Assembly (NCBI GenBank): GCA_051880655.1
Contig: JBJEOJ010000103.1
Location: 1 to 46,187, forward strand
From: Acutalibacteraceae bacterium
GTDB lineage: Bacteria; Bacillota; Clostridia; Oscillospirales; Acutalibacteraceae
DNA: 46,187 bases
Direction: 5' to 3'
Below, one piece after another: positions 17,763 to 35,256 of the stretch. The position numbers and the translations under genes are program-made. The notes below the pieces were generated by a model that saw nothing but the letters and a program-made list of their open reading frames with translations, searched no databases and had not been told where the DNA came from. Each line of letters begins with the position of its first letter. Positions within the stretch are counted from its first letter, which is position 1.

Positions 17763-17776
17763 AGGAGTCGGCAATT

Positions 17777-18531: not shown

Positions 18532-18560
18532 CACAGACTTTACGAAAGGAGAGTTTCCAA

Positions 18561-19754
18561 ATGGAAATGATTAAAGATGTTATTGTGAGTCTGTGGCAGT
18601 CCTCCGGCTTTGCGGCGCTTTTTGACGGCGGTGTTTTTCATTGGCGCAATCTTGTTATGATTGCCGTTTCTTTTGTTCTTCTTTATTTTGCAATTGCAAA
18701 AAAATGGGAACCGCTGCTTCTCGTGCCGATCGCTTTCGGAATTCTGCTTGCCAATTTGCCGGGCGCAACGCTTATGAGTGACCCGACGGGTCTTATGGAT
18801 ACATCAAACATTGTTCAGGGTGCGCATTGGTATGATACGGGTGTTTTGCGGCTTATATATATGGGCGTCAAAAGCAGTATCTTCCCATGTCTGATTTTCC
18901 TCGGCATCGGAGCGATGACGGATTTTGCGCCGCTTCTTTCAAATCCCGTCAGCCTTCTTCTCGGTGCTGCGGCACAGCTTGGCATTTACATCGCCTTTAT
19001 CATTGCGATTCTTCTCGGCTTCAGTCCTGCCGAAGCCGCTTCCATTGCCATCATCGGCGGAGCGGACGGACCGACCGCAATTTACCTGACAAGCCGACTT
19101 GCGTCGGAACTTCTCGGACCGATTGCTGTTGCGGCATATTCGTATATGGCGCTGATACCGTTCATTCAGCCGCCGATTATTAAGCTTCTGACAACAGAAA
19201 AAGAACGCAAGGTTGAAATGAAGCAGACAAGGAAAGTAAGCAAACTTGAAAAAATCATTTTCCCTGTTGTGGTTATTATTATCTGTGCTTTCATTCTTCC
19301 CGATGTTGCTCCGCTTCTCGGTATGCTCATGCTCGGCAACCTGTTCAGAGAATGCGGCGTTGTTGAAAGACTCAGCGAAACCGCACAGAACGCTCTGATG
19401 AACATTGTCACGATTATGCTCGGTCTTACCGTTGGTGCAACGGCAAACGGCGACACCTTCCTTCAGCCGAAAACGCTGATGATTATTGCGCTCGGACTTC
19501 TGGCATTCTGTTTCTCAACGGCAGGCGGTGTACTGCTTGGAAAGCTTCTTTATGTCATTACCGGCGGCAAGGTCAATCCGATTATCGGTGCGGCAGGTGT
19601 TTCTGCTGTTCCGATGGCGGCGCGTGTTGCACAGAATGAGGGCAGAAAATATAATCCGACAAACTTCCTTTTGATGCACGCGATGGGGCCGAATGTTGCA
19701 GGCGTTATCGGTTCTGCGGTTGCGGCAGGCTTCCTGCTTGCACTCTTCAAATGA
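18561..19754 (+). CDS. oadB: Na+-translocating decarboxylase beta subunit (OadB/GcdB/MmdB family)
   Basis: 397 aa polytopic membrane protein. Family-typical blocks [33 protein letters not shown]. Confidence 0.85.
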
Positions 19755-20529: not shown

Positions 20530-21147
20530 TTATCTGATAAAATCAGTCAGAACCTTTTTGTTCTTCGGCTCTTCAACGCCCGCTTTTTTGCCTGCTTCAA
20601 TGCATCTGAGCAGCCATGCCATGTTTTTTCCGAGATGATACATGGTCATCATGCCCTCGGCGTCCTGTCTGACATCGTCGGGCGTTCTGCCGTGAACTTC
20701 ATTCCAATAGGTTGCGCTTACAATCGGCATCTGACTGATGCTGAAATATTTGTTGGTAACGTCCATTGTTGTGACGCCGCCGGCTCTTCTTGAAGAAGAA
20801 ACTGCGGCCGCCGGTTTATATCTGAAATGGCTTGAGCCGCTGTAAAAGCATCGGTCAAGGAAGCTTAAAAGCTGACCGGAGGTATGTGCGTAATAAACAG
20901 GAGAGCCGAAAACGAAACCGTCTGCTTCGTCGGCTTTTTTAACAAATTCGTTAACGCAGTCATCAAAAATGCATTTTCCGAGTTCAATGCAGCGTCTGCA
21001 GCCGAGACAGTCGTTGATCGGTTTTGAGCCGAGCTGATAAATTTCGGTTTCGATGTTCTCTTCGTTCAGGGCGCGCGCGACTTCACAAAGAGCGGTGTAT
21101 GTGCAGCCCTTTGCTCTGGGACTGCCGTTTACAAGAATCACTTTCAT
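20530..21147 (-). CDS. iron-sulfur flavoprotein / NADPH-dependent FMN reductase family protein
   Basis: Start placed at MKVILVNGSPRAKGCTY (GAGGAA upstream). Flavodoxin-like fold motif and a Cys cluster CLGCRRCIELGKC. Confidence 0.75.
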   Translation of the reverse strand: MKVILVNGSPRAKGCTYTALCEVARALNEENIETEIYQLGSKPINDCLGCRRCIELGKCIFDDCVNEFVKKADEADGFVFGSPVYYAHTSGQLLSFLDRCFYSGSSHFRYKPAAAVSSSRRAGGVTTMDVTNKYFSISQMPIVSATYWNEVHGRTPDDVRQDAEGMMTMYHLGKNMAWLLRCIEAGKKAGVEEPKNKKVLTDFIR

Positions 21148-21216
21148 GATAAGATTCCTCGCTTTCTTGAATTTCGTTTTCATTATATCACAATATCAGA
21201 CAATTTTTAAGTGATT

Positions 21217-21417
21217 TCACTTTTCTTTATAGTATAATTTACAGTGACAATAGCCTTCAAAATCCGGATCGGCAATCTGCTCGCGAAATTCCTTGCAGAT
21301 ACATTTCGTGTCTTCGTTTTTCACAATTTTGCAGGGACAATAGCCGCCTTTCTTTTTGAGGCTTTCTTTCAGAAATTCAACAACCTCATTGTCCTCGTTA
21401 TATCTTACTTTGCTCAT
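21217..21417 (-). CDS. ferredoxin:thioredoxin reductase catalytic-subunit-like small Cys-rich protein
   Basis: 66 aa from MSKVRY (GGGAGTG upstream). Has the CPC...CxC...CHC pattern (YCPCKIV, CICKEF, YCHCKLY) characteristic of FTR catalytic chains. Confidence 0.65.
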   Translation of the reverse strand: MSKVRYNEDNEVVEFLKESLKKKGGYCPCKIVKNEDTKCICKEFREQIADPDFEGYCHCKLYYKEK

Positions 21418-21883
21418 GGTATTTTGCACTCCCTTTCAGATGATTTCGGCGTAATAAAATAAACAGACTGCAATCATTAATTATTAAGCATCTTACAATT
21501 AAAATATCACCTGTTTGTTCAATTGTCAATATTTTTCAGAATGCACGAACCGAAAAGAATAAGGAAGATTTTTCAAAAAAATAATTGCTCAGAAACCTCT
21601 TGATGCCGCTGAAAAAAGCTTTTGAAGAGTGAAAGCAAAAAACGGCAGATATAACCAAACCCGGCTATGCCTTACATTACATACTTTCATGCCAAAAATA
21701 CATATCAAAAAACATTGTCATCTTGTCGAAATAAGTATAAAATTTATAAGATATAATGTATTGCTGTGCTTAGTTACAGCAATTATCATTGACGGACTGC
21801 TTGCATGAGGAGAATACGGTGGTTTTTGCAAAGGTACGTCTTATCAAAAGCAAAGGAGGGCCCCTTTATTTGGGCAGAAAACT

Positions 21884-22663
21884 ATGACTTACAGTTATTT
21901 TCCGGGTTGCACCTTGAAAACAAAGGCGAAAGATCTTGATTCTTATGCCAGAGCATCGGCCGAAGCGCTGGGCGTCACTCTCGAAGAAATTGACGACTGG
22001 CAGTGCTGCGGTGCGGTTTATCCGCTTGCGTCAGACGAAATTGCAACAAAGCTTTCTTCCGTCAGAGCACTTGAAAATGCCAAGGAAAAGAATCAGCCTC
22101 TGATTACCGTTTGCTCGGCTTGCCATCATGTTATCAAGCGTGTCAACCATGACATGCAGACCAAGGAAGACATAGCTTTGCGTGTTAACAATTATCTCGG
22201 CCTTGAAGAGCCGTATAAGGGTGAAACGCAGGTTATTCATTACCTTGAAATGCTTCGTGACAAGATCGGCTTTGATGAGCTGAAAAAGAAAGTTGTCAAT
22301 CCTCTCACAGGCAGAAAAATTGCCGCTTATTACGGCTGTATGCTCCTTCGCCCCGGCAAGGAAATGCAGTTTGACGATCCTGAAAATCCCACTATTATGG
22401 AAGATTTCATCAAGGCAATCGGTGCCGAACCGGTTGTTTATGCGTTCAGAAATGAATGTTGCGGCGGCTATATGACAATGAACGACAAAGCACTTGCCTG
22501 CAAAATGGCAAACAAGGTTGTTTCATCGGCAAAAAGCAAGGGCGCACAGGAAATAATCACTGCCTGCCCGCTTTGCCTTTATAACCTGAAAGAAAACAGT
22601 GACGGCAGCTTGCCTGTCTATTATTTCACCGAGCTTCTTGCAGAAGCACTCGGCGTTAAATAA
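21884..22663 (+). CDS. hdrB: heterodisulfide reductase subunit B-like (two CCG cysteine-rich domains)
   Basis: 259 aa. MTYSYFPGC...WQCCGAVYP...CSACHH and YYGCMLL...NECCGGYM...CPLCLYN. ATG 21884 is the only possible start after the in-frame stop at 21806. Confidence 0.85.
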   Translation: MTYSYFPGCTLKTKAKDLDSYARASAEALGVTLEEIDDWQCCGAVYPLASDEIATKLSSVRALENAKEKNQPLITVCSACHHVIKRVNHDMQTKEDIALRVNNYLGLEEPYKGETQVIHYLEMLRDKIGFDELKKKVVNPLTGRKIAAYYGCMLLRPGKEMQFDDPENPTIMEDFIKAIGAEPVVYAFRNECCGGYMTMNDKALACKMANKVVSSAKSKGAQEIITACPLCLYNLKENSDGSLPVYYFTELLAEALGVK

Positions 22664-22677
22664 AGGGGTGTGAAATT

Positions 22678-23070
22678 ATGCACAAAACAGGTAAAGAAAT
22701 GAGCGAGGACATCATTGCTGTTTGCGGTGTCAATCCCAGACAGTGCATGAAATGCGGCAAATGCTCCGCAACTTGTCCGGCTTTTGAAGAAATGGATATT
22801 CATCCGCATCAGTTTGCATCCATGGTTGTTGAGGGAAGAATCGACGAACTTCTTGCTTCAAAGTCAATCTGGAAATGCCTTTCATGCTTTGCTTGCGTTG
22901 AAAGATGCCCAAGAAGCGTTGAACCGGCAAAGCTGATTGAAGCGGTCAGAGTAACCGTTCTTCGTGAAAGAGGCGGAAGCTTCCTTTCACCGGACGACAT
23001 TCCCGCAAAGCTTGACAGTGAGCTTCCTCAGCAGGCCATTGCCGCCGCTTTCAGAAAATACAGAAAATAA
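22678..23070 (+). CDS. hdrC: heterodisulfide reductase subunit C-like (2x[4Fe-4S])
   Basis: 130 aa. CMKCGKCSATCP and CLSCFACVERCP. Confidence 0.8.
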   Translation: MHKTGKEMSEDIIAVCGVNPRQCMKCGKCSATCPAFEEMDIHPHQFASMVVEGRIDELLASKSIWKCLSCFACVERCPRSVEPAKLIEAVRVTVLRERGGSFLSPDDIPAKLDSELPQQAIAAAFRKYRK

Positions 23071-23140
23071 GCTGACTGTTTTGGTTAAACAGTTATGTAT
23101 TCAGAAATAACCGAATTCTTGAAATAAAGGAGTGTTCAAA

Positions 23141-25129
23141 TTGCAGAGAATCGGAGTTTTTGTGTGTTGGTGCGGAAGCAACATTGCAGCAACCGTTGAT
23201 GTTGACGCAGTTGTTGAAGCAGTCAAAAACGAACCCGGAGTTTGCTTTGCTCAGAACTATCAGTATATGTGTTCCGAAGCAGGTCAGGCACTAATCAAAA
23301 ACGCCATTAAAGAGCATAATCTGACAGGCGTTGTTGTTTGTTCCTGCTCACCGAGAATGCACGAAGCAACTTTCAGAAAAACAGCCGAACAGGCGGGGCT
23401 CAACCCCTATATGGTTGAAATTGCAAACATCCGTGAGCATTGTTCATGGATTCACAAAGATAAACAGGAAGCAACCGAAAAGGCAGTTATTCTTGCAAGA
23501 GCTGCCATTGCAAAGGTTAACCTCAACGCACCGCTTCAGCCGGGCGAAAGCGCAGTAACAAAGCGTGCGCTCATCATCGGCGGCGGTATTGCAGGACTTC
23601 AGTCCGCTCTTGACATTGCCGATGCAGGCTATAAAGTTGACATTGTTGAAAGATCGGCAACAATCGGCGGCAAAATGGCTCAGCTTGACAAGACTTTCCC
23701 GACGCTTGACTGCGCTGCCTGCATTCTTACCCCGAAAATGGTTGAAGCTTCCCAGCACCCGAACATCACGCTTTATACCTACAGCGAGGTTGAAGAGGTT
23801 AAGGGCTTTGTCGGAAACTTTGACGTTAAAATCAAAAAGAAAGCCCGTTTTATTGACGAAAACAAATGTACGGGCTGTGCGGTATGCACAACAAAATGTC
23901 CCTCAAGAAAGGGCGGCAACGAATTTAACTGCAACCTTGACACAAGGGGAGCGGTTTATATTCCGTTTGCACAGGCTGTTCCGAACATTGCCTGCATTGA
24001 CAGCACAAGATGTCTGCATTTTAAAACAGGCAAATGCGGAATCTGCCAGAAGGTATGCTCTGCCGGAGCAATCAACTTTGACCAGAAAGACGAAATTATT
24101 GAAGAAAAATACGGCGCAATTGTTGTTGCAACCGGTTTCCAGATTTCGGATGTCACCAAATTTGATGAATTCCAGTATACAAAGCATCCCGACGTAATCA
24201 CTTCTCTTGAGCTTGAAAGAATCATGAATGCGGCAGGTCCGACAAAGGGCACGCTTCTTCGTATGTCGAACAAAGAGCACCCGAAGGACATTGTTTTTGT
24301 TCAGTGTGTCGGCTCAAGAGACAATACCTGCAGAGGTAAGACCTACTGCTCAAAAATCTGCTGTATGTACACAGCAAAGCACGCCATGCTTATCAGAGAA
24401 AAATATCCCGATGTTAATGTTCACGTTTTCTATATCGATGTCAGAACGCCGGGCAAAAACTTTGATGAGTTTTACAGACGCGCCGTTGAACAGTATAACG
24501 TTGACTATATCAAAGGCATGGTCGGAAAGGTCTGGGAAAACGAAGAAGGAAGACTCACCGTTCAGGGTGTTGACCTTCTTTCCAACAGAAGAATTATGCT
24601 TGACACCGATATGGTTGTTCTTGCTGCGGCAATTGAGCCCAGCAGTGGCGTAAGAGACATTGCAACCATGCTCACGGCAAGCATTGACACCAATAACTTC
24701 CTGACAGAAGCGCACCCGAAGCTTCGTCCCGTTGAAAGTCCGACAGCAGGCGTTTTCCTTTCCGGTGTATGCCAGGGTCCGAAAGATATTCCCGAAACCG
24801 TTTCACAGGCAGGCGCTGCCGCCGTTAAGGTTATCGGTCTGCTTGCAAAGGATAAGCTTGTCACAAGCCCGTGCACGGCTTCACCGAACGAGCTGATGTG
24901 CAACGGCTGTTCAACCTGCGAAAGAGTTTGCCCCTATGGTGCAATTGATTATGTTGATAAAGAAGTCAACGACCACGGCAAGCGTGAAGTTCGCCGCCTT
25001 GCAAGAGTCAATTCCGCTCTTTGCCACGGCTGCGGTGCTTGTACGGTTGCATGTCCGTCCGGCGCTATGGACCTTAAGGGCTTCAGCAACAGACAAATTA
25101 TGGCGGAGGTGGATGCTATATGCAAGTAA
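23141..25129 (+). CDS. hdrA: heterodisulfide reductase subunit A-like FAD/FeS protein
   Basis: About 662 aa. TTG 23141 sits 8 nt after AAGGAG and is preferred over GTG 23132, which lies inside the SD. IGVFVCWCGSNIA N-terminus, GGGIAGLQSALD FAD fold, inserted CTGCAVCTTKCP/CGICQKVCSAGA and C-terminal CNGCSTCERVCP/CHGCGACTVACP ferredoxin domains. Confidence 0.85.
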   Translation: MQRIGVFVCWCGSNIAATVDVDAVVEAVKNEPGVCFAQNYQYMCSEAGQALIKNAIKEHNLTGVVVCSCSPRMHEATFRKTAEQAGLNPYMVEIANIREHCSWIHKDKQEATEKAVILARAAIAKVNLNAPLQPGESAVTKRALIIGGGIAGLQSALDIADAGYKVDIVERSATIGGKMAQLDKTFPTLDCAACILTPKMVEASQHPNITLYTYSEVEEVKGFVGNFDVKIKKKARFIDENKCTGCAVCTTKCPSRKGGNEFNCNLDTRGAVYIPFAQAVPNIACIDSTRCLHFKTGKCGICQKVCSAGAINFDQKDEIIEEKYGAIVVATGFQISDVTKFDEFQYTKHPDVITSLELERIMNAAGPTKGTLLRMSNKEHPKDIVFVQCVGSRDNTCRGKTYCSKICCMYTAKHAMLIREKYPDVNVHVFYIDVRTPGKNFDEFYRRAVEQYNVDYIKGMVGKVWENEEGRLTVQGVDLLSNRRIMLDTDMVVLAAAIEPSSGVRDIATMLTASIDTNNFLTEAHPKLRPVESPTAGVFLSGVCQGPKDIPETVSQAGAAAVKVIGLLAKDKLVTSPCTASPNELMCNGCSTCERVCPYGAIDYVDKEVNDHGKREVRRLARVNSALCHGCGACTVACPSGAMDLKGFSNRQIMAEVDAICK

Positions 25130-25584
25130 ACGAAAACAACGAAGCAAAAAAGCAATTCAAGCCGCTCATCGTGGCATTTTGCTGCAACTGGTGCAGCTAC
25201 GCAGGTGCAGACCTTGCCGGTACAAGCCGACTTTCCTATCCTGCAGATGTAAAAATTATCCGTGTTCCGTGCTCATGCCGTGTTAACCCGATGTTCATTC
25301 TCAAAGCTTTTGAGAAAGGCGCAGACGGCGTTATCATGTGCGGCTGTCACCCCGGTGACTGCCATTACAGCACAGGCAACTATTATGCAAGAAGAAGAAT
25401 GACCCTTTTGTTCAGTATGCTCGATTATCTCGGCATTGACAGAGCAAGAACAAGAGTTGAATGGGTATCCGCCGCCGAGGGTCAGAAGTTTTCGCTTGTT
25501 ATGAACGATTTTGCGAAAACCATTACTGAGCTTGGCGAGAATGTGAAGTTGGGGGATCTGAGATGCAAAAAACAGCAGGATTAA
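25120..25584 (+). CDS. mvhD: MvhD/FlxD-like (methyl-viologen-reducing hydrogenase delta subunit family)
   Basis: 154 aa. AFCCNWCSYAGADLAG ... CGCHPGDCHY. Overlaps the end of hdrA by 10 nt. Confidence 0.85.
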   Translation: MQVNENNEAKKQFKPLIVAFCCNWCSYAGADLAGTSRLSYPADVKIIRVPCSCRVNPMFILKAFEKGADGVIMCGCHPGDCHYSTGNYYARRRMTLLFSMLDYLGIDRARTRVEWVSAAEGQKFSLVMNDFAKTITELGENVKLGDLRCKKQQD

Positions 25585-26552
25585 TGAAAAAAAGAGTTCT
25601 TGAGCTTCTTGCTGACGGCACTGTCACAAAAGTCCTCGGCTGGAAAGCGGGCGAATTCTTCTATGACGTTACACCCGCATTCTTTTCAAACGAAGAAGAA
25701 CTTTCCGAGCTTATTTACACAAGCTTTTGCGGAGCTAACCTGAGCAAATACCTGATTGAAGAATGCAGAAACATGAAAGAGGGCAAAATTTGCGTTTTGC
25801 TCAAGCCCTGTGACACCTATAGTTTTAATCAGCTTCTGACAGAGCACAGAATCGACAGGGATAAGATTTATGTCATCGGCATCGGCTGCAAAGGTATGCT
25901 TGACATTGAAAAAATCAAAGCTATGGGCATCAAGGGAATCACAAAGGTTCTTGAAGACGGCGAAGACCTTGATATCAGAACCATTTACGGCGACAAAAAG
26001 TGCAAAAAGCAAGACGCACTTCTTGAAAAATGCCTTTGCTGCAAGGGCAAGGAACACAAGGTGTTCGATGAAGTAATCGACCCCGAGCCTGAAACCGAGC
26101 AGGAAAAAGCAGACCGCTTTGAAAAGGTCAGAGAGCTTGAAAACATGACAAGCGAAGAAAGATTCGCTTTCTGGAACGGCGAACTTTCAAAATGTATCCG
26201 CTGCAACGCCTGCAGAAATGTCTGCCCGGCATGCAGCTGCATGAAATGTGTTTTCGATAATCCGGTTTCCGGTGCGGCAAGCAAAGCCAACACAGACACA
26301 TTTGAAGAAAAAATGTTCCATATCATCAGAGCTTTCCATGTTGCGGGAAGATGCACAGACTGCGGTGAATGTTCAAGAGTTTGCCCGCAGGGAATTCCGC
26401 TTCATCTGCTTAACCGCAAGTTCATCAAGGATATTGACGAGCTTTACGGCGACTATCAGGCAGGCGAAGAAGCAGGTTCAAGAGCACCTCTTGTTAACTT
26501 CAGCTTTGACGATGCAGAACCTTCCATCATTAACGAGAGGGGGAACAGCTGA
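25563..26552 (+). CDS. 4Fe-4S polyferredoxin-type subunit (FlxC / sulfhydrogenase-beta / AsrA-like)
   Basis: 329 aa. CIRCNACRNVCPACSC and CTDCGECSRVCP. ATG 25563 has GGGGGA 6 nt upstream. An alternative TAATG-coupled start lies at 25584. Confidence 0.65.
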   Translation: MQKTAGLMKKRVLELLADGTVTKVLGWKAGEFFYDVTPAFFSNEEELSELIYTSFCGANLSKYLIEECRNMKEGKICVLLKPCDTYSFNQLLTEHRIDRDKIYVIGIGCKGMLDIEKIKAMGIKGITKVLEDGEDLDIRTIYGDKKCKKQDALLEKCLCCKGKEHKVFDEVIDPEPETEQEKADRFEKVRELENMTSEERFAFWNGELSKCIRCNACRNVCPACSCMKCVFDNPVSGAASKANTDTFEEKMFHIIRAFHVAGRCTDCGECSRVCPQGIPLHLLNRKFIKDIDELYGDYQAGEEAGSRAPLVNFSFDDAEPSIINERGNS

Positions 26553-27577
26553 TGTATTATATTGAAAAAGCAAAACTCAGCGAGCTTTTTGCAAAACTCT
26601 CAGAAACCTCTAGCGTTTATCTTCCCGTCAGAAAAAACGGTCAGGTAGACTTTGCAAAATGGGAGGACGGAACCGAATATTGCTCCGATGAGCTGAAAAC
26701 GGTGAAAAGTGCAAAAGACCTTTTCTTCCCTCAAAGTGAAAATATTGTTTCTTTCACAAGAGAAAACACAAAAATCACGGTTGAGCCCAAAGAGCTTCCG
26801 AGCGAAAGAACCGTTCTTTTCGGCGTCAGAGCCTGCGATGCAAAAAGCTTTGATGTTCTCGACAAAGTGTTCATGAGCGAACCTGCCGACAGCTTCTATA
26901 CCGCAAGACGCACCAACGGCGTTGTTATCACAACTGCCTGCTCACAGCCGGAGGAAACCTGCTTCTGCAGCACGTTCGGCATTGATCCGGCAAATCCGGG
27001 CGCAGATGTTCAGACATGGTTTGTCGGCGAAAAGCTTTATTGGGAAGCTTTAAGCGAAAAAGGTAAACAGCTCACAGAAGAAATTTCCGCTTTGCTTTGT
27101 GATGCAGACGCTTCTGAGGTTGAAAGCGAAAAGGCAAACATTTGTGATATTATGAAAAAGCTTCCGCTCAGCGGACTTTCACTTGAAAAGTTCGGTGCAG
27201 GAAAGACCAAAGAACTTTTTGATGCCCCCGAATGGGAAAAGCTCAGTCAGTCCTGCCTCGGCTGCGGAGCGTGCACTTTCGTTTGCCCGACCTGCCAGTG
27301 CTATGATATTCGCGATTACGACACCGGTCACGGTGTTAAGAGATACCGCTGCTGGGACTCATGCATGTATAACGATTTCACCATGTGTGCCCACGGAACA
27401 AACAGACCGACACAGCTTCAGCGTTTCAGACAAAGATTCATGCACAAGCTTGTTTATTTCCCGGACAACAATGGCGGTGAATTTTCATGCGTAGGCTGCG
27501 GCAGATGTGTAAGCCGCTGCCCGATTTCAATGAATATCGCAAAGGTAATTAAAGCATTCGGAGGTGACAATCAATGA
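26552..27577 (+). CDS. 4Fe-4S subunit (FlxB / sulfhydrogenase-beta / AsrA-like)
   Basis: 341 aa. FGVRACDAKSF, CLGCGACTFVCPTCQC, CVGCGRCVSRCP. TGATG overlap with the upstream gene. Confidence 0.7.
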   Translation: MYYIEKAKLSELFAKLSETSSVYLPVRKNGQVDFAKWEDGTEYCSDELKTVKSAKDLFFPQSENIVSFTRENTKITVEPKELPSERTVLFGVRACDAKSFDVLDKVFMSEPADSFYTARRTNGVVITTACSQPEETCFCSTFGIDPANPGADVQTWFVGEKLYWEALSEKGKQLTEEISALLCDADASEVESEKANICDIMKKLPLSGLSLEKFGAGKTKELFDAPEWEKLSQSCLGCGACTFVCPTCQCYDIRDYDTGHGVKRYRCWDSCMYNDFTMCAHGTNRPTQLQRFRQRFMHKLVYFPDNNGGEFSCVGCGRCVSRCPISMNIAKVIKAFGGDNQ

Positions 27578-28416
27578 GTTGTTCATGTTCATCAGGTGAT
27601 AAGCTCGTTCCGATTCCGGCAGTTGTCACCGAAATAAGAACCGAAACGCCCGATGTCAAAACTTTCAGAGTTGTCGGACTTGACGGTACAAACTGCTTTG
27701 ACCACAAGCCGGGTCAGTGTGCAATGCTCACAGTTCCCGGAGTCGGCGAAGCCATGTTCTCCATCACATCTTCACCGACAGAAACCGCCTATAAAGATTT
27801 CAGCATCAAAAAATGCGGACTTCTCACGGAATATCTTCACAGCATGGAGCCGGGTCAGGAAATCGGCATCAGAGGACCTTTCGGCAGACCTTTCCCCGTT
27901 GACACGGAATTCAAAGGTCAGAATCTTCTTTTCATCGCCGGCGGTATCGGTCTTGCACCGCTTCATTCCGTAATCAATTACTGCCGTGCTCACAGAGAAG
28001 ATTACGGCACAATTGATATTCTTTACGGTTCAAGAAGTGCGGACGACCTTGTTGATTATGACGAGATTATCAATGTCTGGCAAAAAGAAGACGGCATCAA
28101 TGTTTATCTGACAATCGACAGAGAGCAGGAGGGCTGGGACGGTCATGTCGGCTTTGTTCCCAACTATCTCAAAGAACTTGCTTTTGAGCCGAACAAAACC
28201 GCAATCATCTGCGGTCCGCCGATTATGATTAAGTTTGTTCTGGCAGGTCTTATTGAAATGGGCTTTGACAAAACCCAGGTTTATACAACGCTTGAACTGA
28301 AAATGAAATGCGGAATCGGTAAATGCGGAAGATGCAACATCGGAAGCAAATATGTCTGCAAAGACGGTCCTGTTTTCCGCTGTGATGAAATTGACGAATT
28401 ACCGAATGAATATTAA
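27574..28416 (+). CDS. FNR-fold FAD/NAD(P)H oxidoreductase subunit with C-terminal 2Fe-2S site (FlxA/AsrB/HydG/PyrK-like)
   Basis: 280 aa. RxFS-type FAD motif (AMFSITSSP), NAD(P) motif LLFIAGGIGLAPL, cluster motif MKCGIGKCGRCNIG...C. ATGA overlap with the upstream gene. Confidence 0.8.
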   Translation: MSCSCSSGDKLVPIPAVVTEIRTETPDVKTFRVVGLDGTNCFDHKPGQCAMLTVPGVGEAMFSITSSPTETAYKDFSIKKCGLLTEYLHSMEPGQEIGIRGPFGRPFPVDTEFKGQNLLFIAGGIGLAPLHSVINYCRAHREDYGTIDILYGSRSADDLVDYDEIINVWQKEDGINVYLTIDREQEGWDGHVGFVPNYLKELAFEPNKTAIICGPPIMIKFVLAGLIEMGFDKTQVYTTLELKMKCGIGKCGRCNIGSKYVCKDGPVFRCDEIDELPNEY

Positions 28417-28434
28417 TGAAAAGGAGTGCTGAAA

Positions 28435-29109
28435 ATGGAGCAGATGGTTAACATCTATATCATGGGTAAGAAATACTCTGTGCCCGCAAGTCTGACAATC
28501 ATGACTGCCACCGAATATGCAGGCTATAAATATGTCAGAGGCTGCGGCTGCCGTAACGGTTTTTGCGGCGCCTGCGCAACAATATACAGAATTAAGGGTG
28601 AATTTGAGCTTCGCACAGGTCTTGCCTGTCAGACTCAGGTTCAGGAGGGAATGTATATTGCATCTCTTCCGTTCTTCCCGACCAAAAAGGCTGAATATGA
28701 CATTGAAGAAGTAAAGCCCTCCGAACAGATCATGATGGAGCTTTACCCCGAAATTTACAGCTGTATCGGCTGCAACGCCTGCACAAAGGCCTGTCCGCAA
28801 AGTCTTCCCGTAATGCAGTATATCGCATACGCACAGCGCGGTGAATATAAAAAGTGCGCTGACGCTTCGTTTGACTGCGTTGCGTGCGGAATCTGCACAT
28901 CAAGATGCCCTGCCGGAATCACACATCCGCAGGTTGCCGTTCTTGCAAGAAGACTTACCGGCAAATATATCGCTCCCGAATCAAAACACCTGACAAAGCG
29001 TGTTGACGAAATCGTAAAGGGCGAGCATGAGCAGCTTATCGAGCAGGTTATGGGCAAGCCCATTGAAGAGCTCAAAGAACTTTATAATCACAGAGACATT
29101 GAGAAATAA
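28435..29109 (+). CDS. FrdB/SdhB-like iron-sulfur subunit (2Fe-2S plus 2x4Fe-4S)
   Basis: ATG 28435 sits 8 nt after AAGGAG; the track's GTG 28426 lies inside the SD. CGCRNGFCGAC...C, CIGCNACTKACP, CVACGICTSRCP. Confidence 0.75.
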   Translation: MEQMVNIYIMGKKYSVPASLTIMTATEYAGYKYVRGCGCRNGFCGACATIYRIKGEFELRTGLACQTQVQEGMYIASLPFFPTKKAEYDIEEVKPSEQIMMELYPEIYSCIGCNACTKACPQSLPVMQYIAYAQRGEYKKCADASFDCVACGICTSRCPAGITHPQVAVLARRLTGKYIAPESKHLTKRVDEIVKGEHEQLIEQVMGKPIEELKELYNHRDIEK

Positions 29110-29123
29110 GGAGGGACGATATC

Positions 29124-30722
29124 ATGCTTACAGAAGAAATGCTTGCTTCAATCAAAAAGGTTGAGGCCACAAGACAATCAAGAATCGGTGCAGATCTCAG
29201 AAAAATGACAGCCGATGAAAAAGATGCTCTTCTTAAAGAGTATCATCCCGACTATAAAGACACCGGTTTTGAAACACTTCATGTCGGTCCGAACAAGGGC
29301 GAAAAAGTTCCTGCGGAGCTTCGCCATCTTCTTGAGGGCAAAAGCCGTGTGCTTGGAAAAGACATTGATCTTGAAAATCCCGATTATGATGTTGATGTTC
29401 TCGTAATCGGCGGCGGCGGAGCAGGTGCTTCGGCAGCAATTGAAGCACACAACGCCGGCGCAAACACCATGATCGTCACAAAGCTTCGCATCGGTGACGC
29501 AAACACCATGATGGCAGAGGGCGGAATTCAGGCTGCCGACAAAGAAAACGATTCTCCGGCAACCCATTATCTTGACGCTCTGGGTGGCGGACATTTCAAA
29601 AATGTTCCCGAACTTCTCAAAAAGCTTGTTTGTGACGCTCCGGTTGCCATCAAATGGCTCAACGACCTCGGTGTTATGTTCGACAAGGAAGAGGACGGAA
29701 CCATGGTTACCACCCACGGCGGCGGAACATCAAGAAAAAGAATGCATGCCTGCAAGGACTATTCCGGTGCAGAAATCATGCGTGTTCTCAGAGACGAAGT
29801 TTGGAATCTTGGAATTCCCGTTGTTGATTACACAGCCGCAATTGAAATTATCAAAGATGAAGACGGCAAAGCAGCAGGTGCTGTTCTTCAGAACATGGAA
29901 ACAGGCGAACTTCTTGTTGCAAAGGCAAAAACCGTTATCATCGCAACCGGCGGTGCAGGAAGACTTCATTATCAGGGCTTCCCGACTTCCAACCACTACG
30001 GTGCAACAGCTGACGGTCTGATTCTCGGTTACAGAGCCGGTGCGGAGCTTCTTTATGCTTATACCATTCAGTATCATCCCACGGGCGTTGCTTATCCGTC
30101 ACAGATTTTCGGCGCTCTCGTTACCGAAAAGGTTCGTTCACTCGGCGCACTTCTTGTTAATGTTGACGGCGAAGCTTTCATGAATCCGCTTGAAACCCGT
30201 GATGTTACCGCTTCTTCCATTATCAGAGAATGCAGCACACGCGGCAAGGGTGTTCCCATTCCGGGCGGTGGATACGGTGTATGGCTTGACACGCCGATGA
30301 TCGACATGATCCACGGCGAGGGAACCATTGAAAAAAGAATTCCCGCCATGCTTCGTATGTATCTTCAGTACGGCATTGATATGAGAAAAGAGCCGATTCT
30401 TGTTTATCCGACTCTGCACTATCAGAACGGCGGACTGAAGATCGGCGTTAACGGCATGACAGGCGTTGAAAACCTCTTTGTTGCAGGAGAAGCTGTCGGA
30501 GGAATCCACGGTGAAAACCGTCTTATGGGTAACTCACTTCTTGACATCATCGTTTTCGGCCGAAATGCAGGTCAGAATGCGGCATCAGCAGCAAAGAACA
30601 CAACAGTCGGCAAGCTTACTCTGAGCCATGTTGACGATTTCCAGAAAGAACTTGACGCAGCAGGCATTGAAAGCGACTGCGTTTCACCGAAGCTCCTTCC
30701 GGATTATACAAGAAAGTTTTAA
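29124..30722 (+). CDS. FrdA/TfrA-like soluble fumarate reductase-type flavoprotein (non-covalent FAD predicted)
   Basis: 532 aa. VLVIGGGGAGASAA dinucleotide fold. YHPTG, VTEKVRS, ETRDV, LHYQNGG and GENRLMGNSLLDIIVFG blocks match the succinate dehydrogenase / fumarate reductase / L-aspartate oxidase superfamily. No His at the covalent-FAD position (GDANTMMAEGG). About 90-aa N-terminal extension. Confidence 0.75.
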   Translation: MLTEEMLASIKKVEATRQSRIGADLRKMTADEKDALLKEYHPDYKDTGFETLHVGPNKGEKVPAELRHLLEGKSRVLGKDIDLENPDYDVDVLVIGGGGAGASAAIEAHNAGANTMIVTKLRIGDANTMMAEGGIQAADKENDSPATHYLDALGGGHFKNVPELLKKLVCDAPVAIKWLNDLGVMFDKEEDGTMVTTHGGGTSRKRMHACKDYSGAEIMRVLRDEVWNLGIPVVDYTAAIEIIKDEDGKAAGAVLQNMETGELLVAKAKTVIIATGGAGRLHYQGFPTSNHYGATADGLILGYRAGAELLYAYTIQYHPTGVAYPSQIFGALVTEKVRSLGALLVNVDGEAFMNPLETRDVTASSIIRECSTRGKGVPIPGGGYGVWLDTPMIDMIHGEGTIEKRIPAMLRMYLQYGIDMRKEPILVYPTLHYQNGGLKIGVNGMTGVENLFVAGEAVGGIHGENRLMGNSLLDIIVFGRNAGQNAASAAKNTTVGKLTLSHVDDFQKELDAAGIESDCVSPKLLPDYTRKF

Positions 30723-30745
30723 TTCGGTAAAAAGGAGATAAAAAA

Positions 30746-32002
30746 ATGAGTTTATTTGGCGGAGTGATTTCCATATCCGGTATCACATTTTTGATGTTTT
30801 CCATTTTTGTAATTACCGCACTTGGCTATGCTCTCGGTCGTATCACGATCAAGGGCGTAAGCCTCGGCACGGCAGGCGTTTTCATTGTTGCTCTTCTTTA
30901 CGGCGCAATCTTTTCAAAGGTGATTGAAAGTCAGCTGATGCAGACAATTGCCAATGCCGACCCAGTAAGCTACAGCACAAACGCTTTGAAAATTGTTGAA
31001 AACATCGGCTTGATCCTGTTTGTTACATCTGTTGGTTTCATTGCAGGACCGAATTTCTTCAAAAACCTCAAGCAGAACTATAAATCCTATATCGTTCTCG
31101 GACTTATCATCATTCTTGCCGGTGCAGGAAGCTGCATTGCCTGCTTCTTTATCGGCAAAGGCGGCGAAAGCGATCCGAAAGAATTTGTTGCCATGCTTGT
31201 TGGTCTGCTTTCAGGCTCGTTGACAAGTACACCGGCGTTCTCGGCGGCAAAAGCAACGGTTCTTCCGCAATATGAAGATGCTGTTACAGTCGGTCACGGT
31301 ATTGCTTATCTGTTTGGCGTTATCGGTGTTGTTCTTTTTGTTCAGCTTATCCCGAAGCTCACAAAAGCCAACATGGAAGAAGAAAGAAAGAAAATTCAGA
31401 TTGTTGACACAGGAAAGCCCAAAAAAGAATATAAGGGCAAGCTCATTGACATGGACGGCTTCGGATTTATGGCGTTTGCTCTTGCGGCATTCATCGGCAT
31501 TGTTGTCGGTTCAATCAAAATTCCGCTTTCCTCAAAAGGACTTGACGGAACAACATTTTCGCTCACAACAACCGGCGGAACACTTATAACTGCTCTGATT
31601 TTCGGACATTTCGGTCATATCGGACCAATCAATGTCAAAATTGAAAAAAGAGTTCTTGAAGTGTTCAGAGAATTCGGTCTGATGCTGTTCTTAATCGGTG
31701 CAGGTGTTGCAGGCGGCGCAAAATTTGTTCAGTATTTCAAGGCAATTTATTTCGTATATGGTATTATTATGACAATTGTTCCGATGGTTATCGGCTTCTT
31801 GTTTGCAAAATATGTTCTCAAGCTCAGCCTGCTCAATAACCTCGGTTCAATCACAGGCGGTATGACGAGCACTCCGGCTCTCGGTACGCTTATCAATGTT
31901 GCAGGAACGGACGATGTAGCTTCGGCTTATGCGGCAACTTATCCGATTGCACTGATTGCAGTCGTCGTTGCCTCGCAGCTGATCTGTACTTTCCTCGGCT
32001 GA
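30746..32002 (+). CDS. AAE-family (AspT/YidE/YbjL-type) putative dicarboxylate transporter lacking the central RCK-C domains
   Basis: 418 aa polytopic protein with two internally related halves. N-terminus ALGYALGRITIKGVSLGTAGVFIVALLYG is typical of the family. Confidence 0.65.
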   Translation: MSLFGGVISISGITFLMFSIFVITALGYALGRITIKGVSLGTAGVFIVALLYGAIFSKVIESQLMQTIANADPVSYSTNALKIVENIGLILFVTSVGFIAGPNFFKNLKQNYKSYIVLGLIIILAGAGSCIACFFIGKGGESDPKEFVAMLVGLLSGSLTSTPAFSAAKATVLPQYEDAVTVGHGIAYLFGVIGVVLFVQLIPKLTKANMEEERKKIQIVDTGKPKKEYKGKLIDMDGFGFMAFALAAFIGIVVGSIKIPLSSKGLDGTTFSLTTTGGTLITALIFGHFGHIGPINVKIEKRVLEVFREFGLMLFLIGAGVAGGAKFVQYFKAIYFVYGIIMTIVPMVIGFLFAKYVLKLSLLNNLGSITGGMTSTPALGTLINVAGTDDVASAYAATYPIALIAVVVASQLICTFLG

Positions 32003-32023: not shown

Positions 32024-32869
32024 ATGGTAAGAGACGTTGATGTAAAACTCTTAACAGACAATATTAAAGAAATGTGCATTGAAGCAACACATTATCTTTC
32101 ACCCGATATGTGTGCTGCACTTAAAAAAGCAACAGACACAGAAGAATCACCTCTCGGCAAGCAGGTTCTTGATTCACTCAGCGAAAACCTCAAAATTGCC
32201 GGTGAAGAAATGATCCCCATTTGCCAGGACACAGGCATGGCAGTTGTTTTTCTTGAAATCGGACAGGACGTTCATTTTGTTGGCGGCAATCTCACCGACG
32301 CTGTTAACGAGGGCATCAGAAGAGGTTATGTTGACGGCTTTCTTCGCAAATCCGTTGTCGGCGATCCGATTGAACGCGTGAACACAAAAGATAACACCCC
32401 GGCAATTATTCACACAGAAATCGTTCCGGGCGACAAAGTAAAAATTACGGTTTCTCCGAAAGGCTTCGGCAGTGAAAACAAGAGCAGAATTTTCATGCTC
32501 ACTCCGGCTGACGGCATTGAGGGCGTTAAAAACGCAATTCTCACAGCTGTTAAGGATGCAGGTCCGAATGCCTGTCCGCCGATGGTTGTCGGTGTCGGTA
32601 TCGGCGGTACATTTGAAAAATGTGCTTATCTTGCCAAGAAAGCACTCACAAGAGATATCAGTGTTCATTCTGAAATTCCTTATGTTGCTGAGCTTGAAAA
32701 AGAGATGCTTGAAAAAATCAACAACACAGGCATAGGCCCCGGCGGACTCGGCGGAAGAACAACCGCTCTTGCAGTCAACATCAACACCTATGCAACCCAC
32801 ATTGCAGGTCTTCCTGTTGCAATCAACATTTGCTGCCATGTTAACAGACATGCAGTAAGAGAGATATGA
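32024..32869 (+). CDS. class I (Fe-S) fumarate/tartrate hydro-lyase, alpha-type subunit
   Basis: 281 aa. CQDTGM motif and alpha-region blocks (GFGSEN, GVGIGGT). Confidence 0.85.
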   Translation: MVRDVDVKLLTDNIKEMCIEATHYLSPDMCAALKKATDTEESPLGKQVLDSLSENLKIAGEEMIPICQDTGMAVVFLEIGQDVHFVGGNLTDAVNEGIRRGYVDGFLRKSVVGDPIERVNTKDNTPAIIHTEIVPGDKVKITVSPKGFGSENKSRIFMLTPADGIEGVKNAILTAVKDAGPNACPPMVVGVGIGGTFEKCAYLAKKALTRDISVHSEIPYVAELEKEMLEKINNTGIGPGGLGGRTTALAVNINTYATHIAGLPVAINICCHVNRHAVREI

Positions 32870-32879
32870 GGTGACGAAG

Positions 32880-33437
32880 ATGAGCAAAAATATTGTTAAA
32901 GTACCCCTCAGCAAAGAGGACGCAAAAAGCCTGAAAGTCGGCGATTATGTATATCTCACAGGCACCATTTATTCTGCCCGTGACGCTGCTCACAAAAGAA
33001 TGAGCGAAGCGCTTGCAAAAGGTGAAAAGCTTCCGATCGAAATGGAAGGCAATGTCATTTATTACATGGGACCCTCACCGGCAAGAGAAGGACGTCCCAT
33101 CGGTTCTGCAGGTCCGACAACCTCAGGCCGTATGGATCCTTATGCTCCCACACTTCTTGACCTTGGTTTAAGAGGCATGATCGGCAAGGGCAAAAGAACA
33201 AAAGATGTTGCTGACGCAATTGTAAGAAACGGTGCTGTTTATTTCGCCGCAGTCGGCGGAGCAGGCGCACTGCTTTCACACTGCATCAAATCGGCTGAAG
33301 TTGTTGCCTATGATGATCTCGGACCGGAAGCGATCCGCAAGCTTGAAGTTGAAGAACTTCCCGCAATTGTTGTTATGGACAGCAACGGCGACAATCTTTA
33401 TGAAACAGCGGTTGCTGCTTACCGTAAAGAGGACTGA
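32880..33437 (+). CDS. class I (Fe-S) fumarate/tartrate hydro-lyase, beta-type subunit
   Basis: ATG 32880 sits 6 nt after GAGGTG; the track's GTG 32871 lies within the SD. GPTTSGRMDPYAPTLLDLGLRGMIGKGKR block. Confidence 0.85.
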   Translation: MSKNIVKVPLSKEDAKSLKVGDYVYLTGTIYSARDAAHKRMSEALAKGEKLPIEMEGNVIYYMGPSPAREGRPIGSAGPTTSGRMDPYAPTLLDLGLRGMIGKGKRTKDVADAIVRNGAVYFAAVGGAGALLSHCIKSAEVVAYDDLGPEAIRKLEVEELPAIVVMDSNGDNLYETAVAAYRKED

Positions 33438-33537: not shown

Positions 33538-33580
33538 AAACAAACTGACTCTGATATTCCATCGGAGTCAGTTTTGTTGA
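33538..33580 (+). terminator. rho-independent terminator of the hdr-frd-fum operon
   Basis: AAACAAACTGACTC / GAGTCAGTTTTGTT 14-bp stem with a T-rich tail. Confidence 0.75.
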
Positions 33581-33603: not shown

Positions 33604-33631
33604 TTGACAAAAATAAATTTCTGTGTATAAT
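33604..33631 (+). promoter_or_regulatory. consensus promoter of small-toxin-like locus, copy 2
   Basis: TTGACA (33604-33609), 16-nt spacer, TATAAT (33626-33631). Same distance to the 5' hairpin as in copy 1. Confidence 0.7.
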
Positions 33632-33986: not shown

Positions 33987-35003
33987 TCAATCCGGATAGC
34001 CGTTAGGGTTATTGCTTTGCCAGCGCCATGAATCGGCGCACATTTTTTCAATTCCTCTTTCGGCTTTCCAGCCAAGCTCATTCAGTGCTTTTGTCGGGTC
34101 GGAATAGCAGGTGGCAATGTCGCCGGGACGGCGGTCAACAATTTGGTAGTTGATTTTGATTCCGCTTGCTTTTTCAAAGGCATGAACAACATCAAGAACG
34201 CTGTATCCGACGCCTGTGCCGAGGTTATAGATGTCAACGCCGGTTTTTCCGAGAACTCTTTCAACTGCCTTGACATGACCAAGAGCAAGGTCAACAACGT
34301 GAATATAATCTCTGACACCTGTTCCGTCTGGGGTGTCATAATCGTTGCCGAAAATGCGCAGACAGTCAAGCTTGCCGATGGCAACCTGTGTGATATAGGG
34401 CATAAGATTGTTGGGGATTCCATTGGGATCTTCGCCGATTCTGCCGCTTTCATGCGCACCGATGGGGTTGAAATAGCGAAGCAGGCTGATTGACCATTCA
34501 TTGTCGGCTTTGAAAAAGTCGGAAAGAATAATTTCAATCATATATTTTGTTGTGCCGTAGGGGTTTGTTGTTCCGCCTGTGGGCATGGTTTCTTTAAGCG
34601 GTGAAACATTGTTCATTCCGTAAACGGTTGCAGAAGAGCTGAAAACGATTTTTTTGCAGCCGTTCTTTCTCATAACATCGCAAAGAACAAGAGTGCCGTT
34701 AATGTTGTTGTCATAATACTCAAGGGGTTTTACGCATGATTCACCAACAGCTTTAAGACCCGCAAAATGAATTACAGCGTCGATTTTTTCCTGACGGAAA
34801 ACCTTGGTCAGACCCTCGCGGTCTCTGATGTCACATTCATAAAAAGCAAAAGCTTTTCCTGAAAGTTCTGCGATTCTTCTAAGTGCCTCACGCTTGCTGT
34901 TATAAAAATTATCAACAACAACAACGTCATAGCCTGCGTTCATCAGTTCAATGCAGGTATGAGAGCCGATATAGCCTGCACCGCCGGTTACAAGAATTGA
35001 CAT
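33987..35003 (-). CDS. galE: UDP-glucose 4-epimerase
   Basis: Start placed at [15 protein letters not shown] (GAGGTG upstream). YxxxK (YGTTKYM) and other SDR-extended GalE blocks throughout. Confidence 0.92.
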
Positions 35004-35256
35004 AATCATTCACCTCAACTATAATATATACCGTACTTGTTTTTTGTACCTTAAATATTATACAGCAAAGCCCGAAAAATGCAATAGCTAAAGCGATTAA
35101 TTTGCTGTCTTTCTTTCATACGCGGATAAAAATGTGCTTGATTTTAAGTGTTGTTCCGCCTTTTGAATTCGACAGCAATTTTCAGAACTTTATAAAATGC
35201 GCTTTCAGGCATCATAATCAATATAGGAGGTTGCGGCGGTTTGCCGCAAAAACAAT

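Follow-up and report, generated by a model that had tools for sequence, protein, structure and literature searches.

We describe a cluster of nine co-directional genes at positions 21884-30722 (+ strand) of contig JBJEOJ010000103.1 (GenBank assembly GCA_051880655.1), a stretch of 46,187 nucleotides (nt) from an Acutalibacteraceae bacterium that is called the window below. The genes encode a set of heterodisulfide reductase (HdrBCA) and Flx-type subunits, followed by an FrdB-like iron-sulfur (Fe-S) protein and an FrdA/TfrA-like flavoprotein, and genes for a transporter and a fumarase follow on the same strand. We estimate a probability of about 0.6 that this is one operon for the formation and export of succinate, the nine proteins of which would make up an NAD(P)H-dependent fumarate reductase that also reduces ferredoxin by electron bifurcation. 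The operon is real and widespread. The idea has already been published, and the novelty implied by an earlier note on this DNA was not borne out, as the same subunit set was described and interpreted in this way in 2019-2020 (PMC7282089). The window is a further member of the group, from uncultured gut-type Clostridia.

A listing of open reading frames (ORFs) agreed with the earlier note in finding nine closely packed genes on the + strand, with gaps of 9-61 nt, and three coupling overlaps, which are the 10 nt shared by hdrA and mvhD (ATGCAAGTAA at 25120-25129), TGATG at 26550-26554, and ATGA at 27574-27577. A fourth apparent overlap, at 25563-25584, hinges on the choice of start codon. The note had described the genes up to that for the flavoprotein; its nine genes stand, and to them are added the genes for the transporter and for the alpha and beta subunits of fumarase, which extend the same-strand unit to 33437 and give twelve genes from 21884. 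According to the ORF listing, a membrane-anchor gene is not present in the cluster.

The subunits were identified by Pfam and NCBIfam profile searches and by comparison with solved homologues in the PDB, and the identities previously given to HdrB, HdrC, HdrA, MvhD, and FlxA were upheld. The first gene (21884-22663) encodes an HdrB-like protein of 259 residues with two CCG domains (Pfam, 76 bits), which are predicted to carry the ligands of two non-cubane [4Fe-4S] clusters, and all ten of the CCG cysteines were 100% conserved among 60 orthologues. Its best NCBIfam match was SdhE (162 bits, cut-off 500), followed by HdrB (142 bits, also below the cut-off); in the PDB it matched HdrB (7bkb_B) at 122 bits, and the TfrB model matched at 36 bits across 72 residues. 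The HdrC-like protein (22678-23070, 130 residues) has two CxxCxxCxxxCP motifs, with all eight cysteines 100% conserved, and it matched Pfam Fer4_8 and the NCBIfam HdrC model (59 bits). HdrA is the bifurcating subunit in methanogen Hdr. The window HdrA (23132-25129, 665 residues) is a full-length subunit of the flavin adenine dinucleotide (FAD)/Fe-S type, with 806 bits to NCBIfam HdrA2, and it aligned end to end (residues 5-662, 686 bits) with 5odc_A, the bifurcating HdrA of Methanothermococcus thermolithotrophicus. Membership of the Type E SQR/MFR (SdhABE) group was not found, the scores being 162 bits against a cut-off of 500 for SdhE and 215 against 1100 for the MFR SdhA.

The next four genes encode Flx-type subunits, the types being assigned by profiles and PDB homologues and not by the Flx sequences of Desulfovibrio vulgaris. 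The MvhD/FlxD-like protein (25120-25584, 154 residues) is a predicted [2Fe-2S] adaptor that matched Pfam FlpD at 184 bits. The two Fe-S subunits that follow had been likened in the earlier note to sulfhydrogenase beta/AsrA, and this holds for only one of them. The FlxB-like protein (26552-27577, 341 residues) is of the AsrA/sulfhydrogenase-beta type, with 100 bits to Pfam Fer4_22, 185 bits to NCBIfam ShyB, and 130 bits to PDB 9nez_B, whereas the FlxC-like protein (25563-26552, 329 residues, Pfam Fer4_8) has as its nearest solved homologue the FdhB of Fdh-Hdr complexes (7bkb_E, 100 bits), which we take to be the subunit that contacts MvhD in those structures. Fifteen cysteines of FlxC were 100% conserved. 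The FlxA-like NAD(P)H/FAD subunit (27574-28416, 280 residues) has a ferredoxin-NADP-reductase fold and a C-terminal [2Fe-2S] site (C246, C251, C254, and C262, 100% conserved); it matched Pfam NAD_binding_1, FAD_binding_6, and DHODB_Fe-S_bind and the sulfhydrogenase gamma subunit in the PDB (9nez_C, 192 bits). The counterparts of FlxB and FlxA in Pyrococcus sulfhydrogenase I are thus its beta and gamma subunits, together its NAD(P)H module. The Fe-S ligand cysteines of HdrA, MvhD, FlxA, FlxB, FlxC, and FrdB were all about 100% conserved (60-81 orthologues), those of the HdrA ferredoxin-domain clusters included. The set therefore contains each element of an Flx-Hdr system, namely a full-length HdrA, an HdrB with two CCG domains, an HdrC with two motifs, and subunits of the FlxA, FlxB, FlxC, and FlxD types. 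A DsrC-like gene was not seen in the cluster or elsewhere in the window.

The eighth gene (28426-29109) encodes an FrdB-like Fe-S subunit of 227 residues with matches to Pfam Fer2_4 and Fer4_7. An N-terminal [2Fe-2S] motif (C42, C47, C50, and C68) is followed by two four-cysteine CxxCxxCxxxCP motifs, all 100% conserved among 78 orthologues, and this is the layout of FrdB, with a [2Fe-2S] cluster and two further clusters, both of which are predicted to be [4Fe-4S]. The earlier description of an FrdB-like 2Fe-2S/4Fe-4S protein is therefore right as to the cluster motifs, but the likeness in sequence is weak, at 26 bits to the FrdB of W. succinogenes and 41 bits to the N terminus of TfrB. No CCG domain was found in this protein by Pfam, the CCG protein being encoded by a separate gene seven genes upstream, and an identity with TfrB, which has a fused CCG domain, was rejected. 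In one relative (P0122, 727 residues), an FrdB-like protein is naturally fused to the N terminus of a flavoprotein 55% identical to that of the window; as Rosetta-stone evidence, this fusion supports a physical FrdB-FrdA pair.

The flavoprotein gene (29124-30722) encodes 532 residues comprising FAD and capping domains and an N-terminal extension of about 90 residues that is kept across the family (motifs HPDY and GPNKGEKVP). Pfam FAD_binding_2 matched residues 91-472 at 228 bits. The best NCBIfam matches were TfrA (339 bits, cut-off 718), Sdh/Frd PRK07803 (266 bits), and NadB TIGR00551 (264 bits, cut-off 452.75), and the protein fell below every NCBIfam equivalog cut-off. The dicarboxylate-site blocks YHPTG, TEKVRS, ETRD, and LHYQNGG, the missing histidine for covalent FAD attachment, and the N-terminal extension, all previously read from the DNA, were seen again in the sequence and in alignments. 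H318 (HPTG), T334-E335, R338, R359, H432, and R466 align with residues of E. coli SdhA/FrdA; in the SdhA alignment, R359-D360 falls on the proton-donor segment, and Asn127 occupies the place of the covalent-FAD histidine (SHT motif). N127, H318, E335, R338, R359, D360, H432, and R466 were invariant among 81 sequences. The protein thus has the His-His-Arg-Arg dicarboxylate site and the proton-donor arginine of the complex-II family and lacks its covalent-FAD histidine. The name FrdA/TfrA-like is sustained by these motifs, with the addition that the Succ_DH_flav_C domain is also missing: PF02910 gave no match in the flavoprotein, in which the FAD domain is followed by only some 60 residues, and the matches to the TfrA and Sdh models broke off where that domain ends, at about position 422 of 546. 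Cys370 (IIRECSTRG), which is not among the known catalytic residues of FrdA or SdhA, was 99% conserved among the 81 orthologues.

An AlphaFold2 model of the flavoprotein had a mean predicted local distance difference test (pLDDT) of 95.3 and a predicted template modelling score (pTM) of 0.93, and the N-terminal extension was confidently modelled. The top PDB match found with Foldseek was E. coli FrdA (1kf6_A, TM 0.71), followed by flavocytochrome c3 fumarate reductases and SdhA, and both Foldseek and phmmer matched soluble fumarate reductases with non-covalent FAD strongly. Such enzymes, the Shewanella flavocytochrome c3 (1qjd/1d4d) and yeast Frd/Osm1 (5glg), share with the window protein the FAD and capping domains, the absence of the covalent histidine, and the absence of Succ_DH_flav_C, but they receive electrons from a fused haem domain or directly from NADH/FMN, whereas the flavoprotein of the window would be served by an Fe-S subunit and Hdr/Flx. 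In E. coli FrdA, His44 variants reportedly keep fumarate reduction and lose succinate oxidation. Because these variants keep only the one direction, a non-covalent FAD, as suggested by the invariant asparagine in place of the histidine, fits an enzyme working in the fumarate-reducing direction.

The position of the flavoprotein within the wider family was evaluated with a bootstrapped neighbour-joining tree of 395 core columns, in which reference proteins were labelled by NCBIfam (TfrA, P0209 and P0265; Sdh/Frd, P0224; NadB, P0270). The window family and a group of flavoproteins of about 400 residues came together in a clade (bootstrap support, 100%) apart from the TfrA, Sdh/Frd, and NadB references. 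Within it, the family with the N-terminal extension was monophyletic by itself with 48% support only, and the sister group (P0159, P0161, P0163, P0168, P0189, and others) lacks both the N-terminal extension and a C-terminal domain and gave no NCBIfam match at E <= 1e-90. Core identity to true NadB (P0270) was 35%, and the window protein was nearer to TfrA and Sdh (39%) than to the soluble flavocytochrome-type enzymes. A grouping with the L-aspartate oxidases, which the earlier note had named as an outcome that would count against its proposal, was not found. An identity as L-aspartate oxidase was rejected on the score (264 bits against 452.75), on the tree, and on the fumarase-linked gene context, and an identity as TfrA was likewise rejected (339 bits against 718), the true TfrA proteins P0209 and P0265 lying in another clade.

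The family is large. An indexed search returned at least 8000 candidates, with 2198 representatives at 50% identity and E <= 1e-30, and relatives are present in at least 577 species-representative genomes. The loci surveyed were the best 80 of these at least 577 (70-82% flavoprotein identity); the window proteins were mapped onto them by tblastn, and counts were taken from 59 loci with at least 7.4 kb 5' of frdA. The carriers of the best 80 loci are gut and rumen Clostridia (Oscillospiraceae, Acutalibacteraceae, Lachnospiraceae, and Christensenellaceae), and the closest named relatives of the window are metagenome-assembled genomes of Clostridia and Acutalibacteraceae. Cultured carriers are Yeguia hominis NSJ-40, Ohessyouella blattaphilus PAL227, and Lachnospiraceae bacterium 46-15; no report on their fermentation products was found in the literature searched. 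The survey of hdrA-frdA neighbourhoods in Clostridia that the earlier note had proposed showed that the linkage is conserved, with frdBA beside hdr/flx and the nine genes colinear in 59/59 species-level loci. Because of this constancy, the order of the nine genes is not a chance arrangement.

A fumarase adjoins the cluster in 58 of the 59 loci, as class II fumC upstream in 39 and as class I fumAB downstream in 19, and never as both. Since two unrelated fumarase classes alternate at the same operon, fumarate is likely to be the substrate of the flavoprotein, and the invariant catalytic residues and the fold like that of FrdA, flavocytochrome c3, and SdhA point the same way. In the window, the class I (Fe-S) fumarate hydratase is encoded at 32024-32869 (alpha, NCBIfam NF004885, 405 bits, cut-off 276) and 32871-33437 (beta, Pfam Fumerase_C, 204 bits; NCBIfam Fe-S hydro-lyase, 270 bits, cut-off 238), both on the + strand. 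An identity of this hydratase as a tartrate dehydratase was rejected, TtdA scoring 175 bits against a cut-off of 365. Between frdA and the fumarase lies a gene for a 418-residue transporter of the AspT/YidE/YbjL (Asp-Al_Ex) family (30746-32002, +; Pfam Asp-Al_Ex, 199 bits; NCBIfam YidE_YbjL duplication domain, 140 bits), which is a candidate C4-dicarboxylate/succinate carrier and was found after frdA in 34/59 loci. Taken together, the invariant catalytic residues, the fold, the 59/59 linkage, and the 58/59 fumarase association support the interpretation of the earlier note, in which fumarate is the high-potential acceptor.

Near-identical nine-gene clusters (flavoprotein 70-73%) were also seen in bins labelled Synergistaceae, Bacteroides uniformis, and Bacteroidaceae (L047, L061, and L075). 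Such identity across families, which at 70-82% also extends over Lachnospiraceae, Oscillospiraceae, and Christensenellaceae, points either to a horizontal transfer of the complete operon or to contamination during binning.

From the gene content, the conserved cofactor motifs, the assignment and modelled fold of the flavoprotein, and the fumarase linkage, we infer that the nine proteins would form a single complex in which electrons pass directly from HdrB/HdrC to FrdB, with NADH rather than NADPH as the donor and with bifurcation to ferredoxin. In the proposed mechanism, the fumarase would supply fumarate, and the operon would convert malate or fumarate to exported succinate by way of a cytoplasmic nine-subunit complex that reduces fumarate with NAD(P)H. 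NAD(P)H would be oxidised at FlxA (FAD and [2Fe-2S]), and the electrons would move through FlxB and FlxC to the MvhD-like adaptor and on to the FAD of HdrA, where the pair would be split. The high-potential electron would pass by way of HdrC and the clusters of HdrB to FrdB and from there to the FrdA-like subunit, at whose non-covalent FAD fumarate would be reduced to succinate, and the low-potential electron would leave through the ferredoxin domains of HdrA, so that the complex probably reduces ferredoxin. The net reaction would be 2 NADH + fumarate + Fd(ox) -> 2 NAD+ + succinate + Fd(red), and the reduced ferredoxin (Fd) could be used by Rnf or by a hydrogenase. The standard potentials (E0') are +33 mV for fumarate/succinate and -320 mV for NADH (PMC5861303). 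By our own calculation, in which ferredoxin was assumed to be at about -450 mV, the net reaction yields about -43 kJ/mol.

The seven Flx-Hdr subunit types of the window are the same as those of Desulfovibrio vulgaris, with the order hdrBCA-flxDCBA in the window as against flxABCD-hdrABC in Desulfovibrio. As cited in PMC7282089 and PMC5861303, FlxABCD-HdrABC of D. vulgaris is an NADH dehydrogenase/heterodisulfide reductase (Ramos et al. 2015). Its proposed acceptor is the disulfide of DsrC, whereas the window adds FrdB, FrdA, and a fumarase and has no DsrC. The methanogen complexes HdrABC-MvhAGD and Fdh-Hdr(-Fmd) (5odc, 7bkb, and 8rvu) have homologous HdrA, HdrB, MvhD, and FdhB-like adaptor subunits and the same logic, in which the HdrA FAD bifurcates and the high-potential branch runs through HdrC and HdrB, but their donors are hydrogenase or formate dehydrogenase and their acceptor is a heterodisulfide at HdrB; in the window, the donor module is of the NAD(P)H type, and the acceptor would be a C=C bond on a separate flavoprotein. 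TfrAB of Methanothermobacter (NCBIfam NF004900/NF004898) is a soluble thiol:fumarate reductase with coenzyme M (CoM-SH) and coenzyme B (CoB-SH) as donors. TfrA is the best named family for the window flavoprotein, and FrdB and HdrB together have the FrdB-like and CCG content of TfrB; the window differs in having no C-terminal domain, in the separation of CCG and FrdB, and in its donor, which would be NAD(P)H by way of Flx-Hdr. We know of no synthesis of CoM-SH or CoB-SH in bacteria of this kind. The energetics follow the same principle as in Bcd-EtfAB and other enoyl reductases that bifurcate with NADH, in which NADH and a high-potential C=C acceptor (crotonyl-CoA at -10 mV, compared with fumarate at +33 mV) drive ferredoxin reduction (PMC5861303), although the Bcd-EtfAB machinery, an Etf and an acyl-CoA dehydrogenase, is unrelated to Hdr, Flx, or Frd.

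The closest published system is the 'succinate operon' of Pseudoclostridium (Clostridium) thermosuccinogenes, made up of one gene for a fumarate hydratase, seven for Flx-Hdr, two for a fumarate reductase, and one for a small hypothetical protein; it was proposed to couple the reduction of fumarate to that of ferredoxin through Flx-Hdr (PMC7282089, Koendjbiharie et al. 2020). The same proposal appears in a 2019 preprint by Koendjbiharie and van Kranenburg (10.20944/preprints201912.0288.v1), as cited in PMC7282089. The operon has the same composition and proposed function as that of the window, and its gene order is exactly that of loci of the L001 type in our survey. The supplement of PMC7282089 gives 1365 base pairs (bp) for fumC and then 783, 324, 5347 (five genes), 675, and 1602 bp (533 residues), and the corresponding sizes in the window are 780, 393, 5285, 684, and 1599 bp. 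The two differ in that the window has a class I fumarase downstream rather than fumC upstream, an AspT-family transporter rather than a hypothetical protein of 82 residues, and a host that is an uncultured, mesophilic, gut-type Clostridia bacterium. In P. thermosuccinogenes, which produces succinate, the genes of the operon were all very highly expressed and co-varied about four-fold (PMC7282089). The only other related item found, a 2024 preprint, connects HdrA with Sdh/Frd flavoproteins through STRING in Firmicutes, Ruminococcus champanellensis among them, and offers no interpretation. A biochemical characterisation of an Flx-Hdr-Frd enzyme was not found in the published literature searched, where the statement of the earlier note that no characterised enzyme has this subunit set appears to be true.

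More distant relatives carry frdBA in other company. One locus (L084, 811-9771) consists of a Kor-like four-gene 2-oxoacid:ferredoxin oxidoreductase followed by hdrA-mvhD-hdrC-hdrB-frdB-frdA, with a flavoprotein 57% identical to that of the window; there are no flx genes on this contig, which stops just after frdA. The presence of an Hdr link without flx in this relative supports the connection between Hdr and Frd. Another cluster (L085/L086, 9366-12891) has just three genes, frdB-frdA-nuoF-like, with a flavoprotein 47% identical, in a host with cytochrome c genes, and it is a candidate for a simple soluble NADH:fumarate reductase. Because frdBA was found with Flx-Hdr, with Hdr in the absence of flx, or with a NuoF-like gene, FrdBA behaves, as judged from gene neighbourhoods, as a portable terminal module coupled to differing electron-input modules. 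The gene context of the deepest members of the clade was examined in P0132, P0135, and P0159, partly on short contigs.

Several points weigh against a bifurcating fumarate reductase encoded by one operon. The promoter and terminator counts in the region were not above shuffled expectation, so that the single transcript is deduced from gene packing and from the co-regulation in P. thermosuccinogenes, and the likeness to the operon of that organism (CDQ83_RS03320-RS03360) is one of gene order and sizes only. A ferredoxin gene is not present in the operon, according to the ORF listing. The association of a 47%-identical FrdBA with a NuoF-like module only shows that bifurcation is not an intrinsic need of the flavoprotein family, and the ten invariant CCG cysteines of HdrB would be expected for a thiol/disulfide site and would not be needed for a mere electron relay. 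No enzyme assay, co-purification, or structure for any member was found in the literature or PDB searched, the PDB matches being homologues from methanogen Hdr, complex II, and sulfhydrogenase. The sequence by itself does not decide between bifurcation and a thiol-mediated route.

The missing ferredoxin gene and the NuoF-linked relative would both be accommodated if Hdr and Flx served simply as an electron wire to FrdBA in a non-bifurcating NAD(P)H:fumarate oxidoreductase, with one NADH per fumarate and no reduction of ferredoxin. We consider this unlikely, since HdrA is complete and its ferredoxin-domain clusters are about 100% conserved, since seven extra subunits would be costly where NuoF and FrdBA apparently suffice, and since, by the logic of bifurcation (PMC5861303), a driving force of about 350 mV would be wasted. 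The invariant HdrB cysteines are more at home in a thiol route, in which Flx-Hdr would reduce a protein or low-molecular-weight disulfide at HdrB and FrdBA, perhaps with HdrB as a split TfrB, would re-oxidise the thiol with fumarate. The best named families, TfrA for the flavoprotein and TfrB for the FrdB N terminus, and the TfrB-like domain content of HdrB plus FrdB agree with such a route, and PMC7282089 has Flx-Hdr passing electrons 'to ferredoxin (and thiols)'. However, neither FrdB nor FrdA has a CCG or other thiol-oxidising domain, the HdrB-TfrB match is weak (36 bits over 72 residues), the cluster has no conserved gene for a DsrC-like protein or other thiol carrier (a pair of FTR-like and FMN-reductase genes that adjoins it in the window was found in 0/83 loci), and a diffusing intermediate would not require strict colinearity of nine genes. 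We regard the thiol route as quite improbable.

Bifurcating enzymes are reversible in principle, and the fumarase and the dicarboxylate-type transporter would serve both directions, so the system might instead be a confurcating succinate dehydrogenase, in which reduced ferredoxin would drive succinate oxidation to NAD+ reduction, for example during growth on succinate or propionate. Enzymes of the FrdA/SdhA family with non-covalent FAD are, however, poor succinate oxidisers, and the asparagine in place of the covalent-FAD histidine is invariant; moreover, the host of the published homologous operon produces succinate and expresses the operon at a high level while doing so, and the carriers are gut and rumen fermenters. 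This direction is therefore very unlikely. Equally remote is another substrate, either L-aspartate, as for NadB, or another enoate or dicarboxylate, with the fumarase marking only the pathway neighbourhood. The flavoprotein does lie below all NCBIfam equivalog cut-offs in a clade of its own, NadB has the same catalytic residues, and deep branches of the clade occur in other gene contexts, but against this stand the NadB score and the separation from NadB in the tree, the dedicated Fe-S partner with its natural fusion to a flavoprotein, the alternation of two non-homologous fumarases beside the cluster in 58/59 loci, and the fact that the window fumarase passes the fumarate hydratase cut-off and fails that for tartrate dehydratase. 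A bifurcating reduction of fumarate appears to be the best-supported reading.

With regard to transcription signals, a candidate sigma-70-like promoter (TTGTCA-17-TAAAAT, 21715-21743, +), a consensus match only, lies in the 455-nt gap 5' of hdrB, and Rfam found no riboswitch or leader RNA in this leader, its only match in the window being a tRNA. The single tRNA gene is at 4089-4161 (+). By direct reading of the sequence, a possible intrinsic terminator (GACTCTGAT-ATTCC-ATCGGAGTC then AGTTTTGTTG) is present at 33547-33579 (+), which the terminator scan did not list, and the promoter scan gave a perfect sigma-70 consensus for the next unit at 33604-33631 (+). The hairpin and T-run followed by a sigma-70 consensus suggest that the unit ends near 33.58 kb. 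The latter promoter is one of two perfect 12/12 consensus matches (TTGACA-16-TATAAT), the other being at 33958-33931 (-), that point towards each other in the interval separating the fumarase genes from a UDP-glucose-4-epimerase-like gene (33987-35009, -). The G+C content is 0.46-0.475 over 22001-32000 and 0.37-0.43 in most of the window, and the 2-kb bins at 6-8 kb, 12-14 kb, and 18-20 kb are similarly high.

Directly 5' of hdrB, a divergent pair of genes (20530-21429, -) encodes a 70-residue protein with a CPC...CHC motif (21217-21429), which weakly matches the catalytic subunit of ferredoxin:thioredoxin reductase (FTR; PF02943, 25 bits), and a flavoprotein matching the FMN-reductase (FMN_red) profile (20530-21183). 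The pair may constitute a small redox system for thiols and disulfides; a role as the thiol/disulfide partner that the cluster lacks was rejected, as tblastn found the pair in none of 83 related loci. Further upstream is a complete Na+-translocating oxaloacetate-decarboxylase-type set (16380-19754, +), composed of an alpha carboxyltransferase (16380-17762; OadA, 709 bits, just under the cut-off of 718), a gamma subunit (17777-18163), a biotin carrier (18160-18531), and a beta subunit (18561-19754). This set fits a fermentation of C4-dicarboxylates; as a part of the conserved system it was rejected, oadB being found in 0/59 related loci.

To the published proposal the present analysis adds the scale of the family (at least 577 species-level genomes), the invariant order of the nine genes (59/59), the exchange of fumarases, the modular partners, a definition of the flavoprotein clade (asparagine for histidine, no C-terminal domain, and an N-terminal extension), and named cultured carriers. 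Succinate is a key metabolite of cross-feeding and signalling in the gut and rumen, and, to our knowledge, Clostridia are generally thought to be without the quinone-linked respiration on fumarate found in Bacteroides and Proteobacteria. A broader reading, to which we give slightly less than an even chance, is that this would be the first case of HdrABC-type bifurcation in which an organic C=C bond, and not a disulfide, is the high-potential acceptor, with the non-cubane clusters of HdrB relaying electrons into a docked FrdBA, that it would be a major quinone-independent, energy-conserving route to succinate in hundreds of species of gut and rumen Clostridia, and that FrdBA would be a portable unit plugged into Flx-Hdr, into Hdr beside a 2-oxoacid:ferredoxin oxidoreductase, or into NuoF. 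The system would allow one to probe whether the unusual clusters of HdrB can act as a plain electron relay. If the proposal is true, it would provide a new class of acceptor for HdrABC-type bifurcation and would explain how quinone-free organisms gain energy from the reductive C4 branch.

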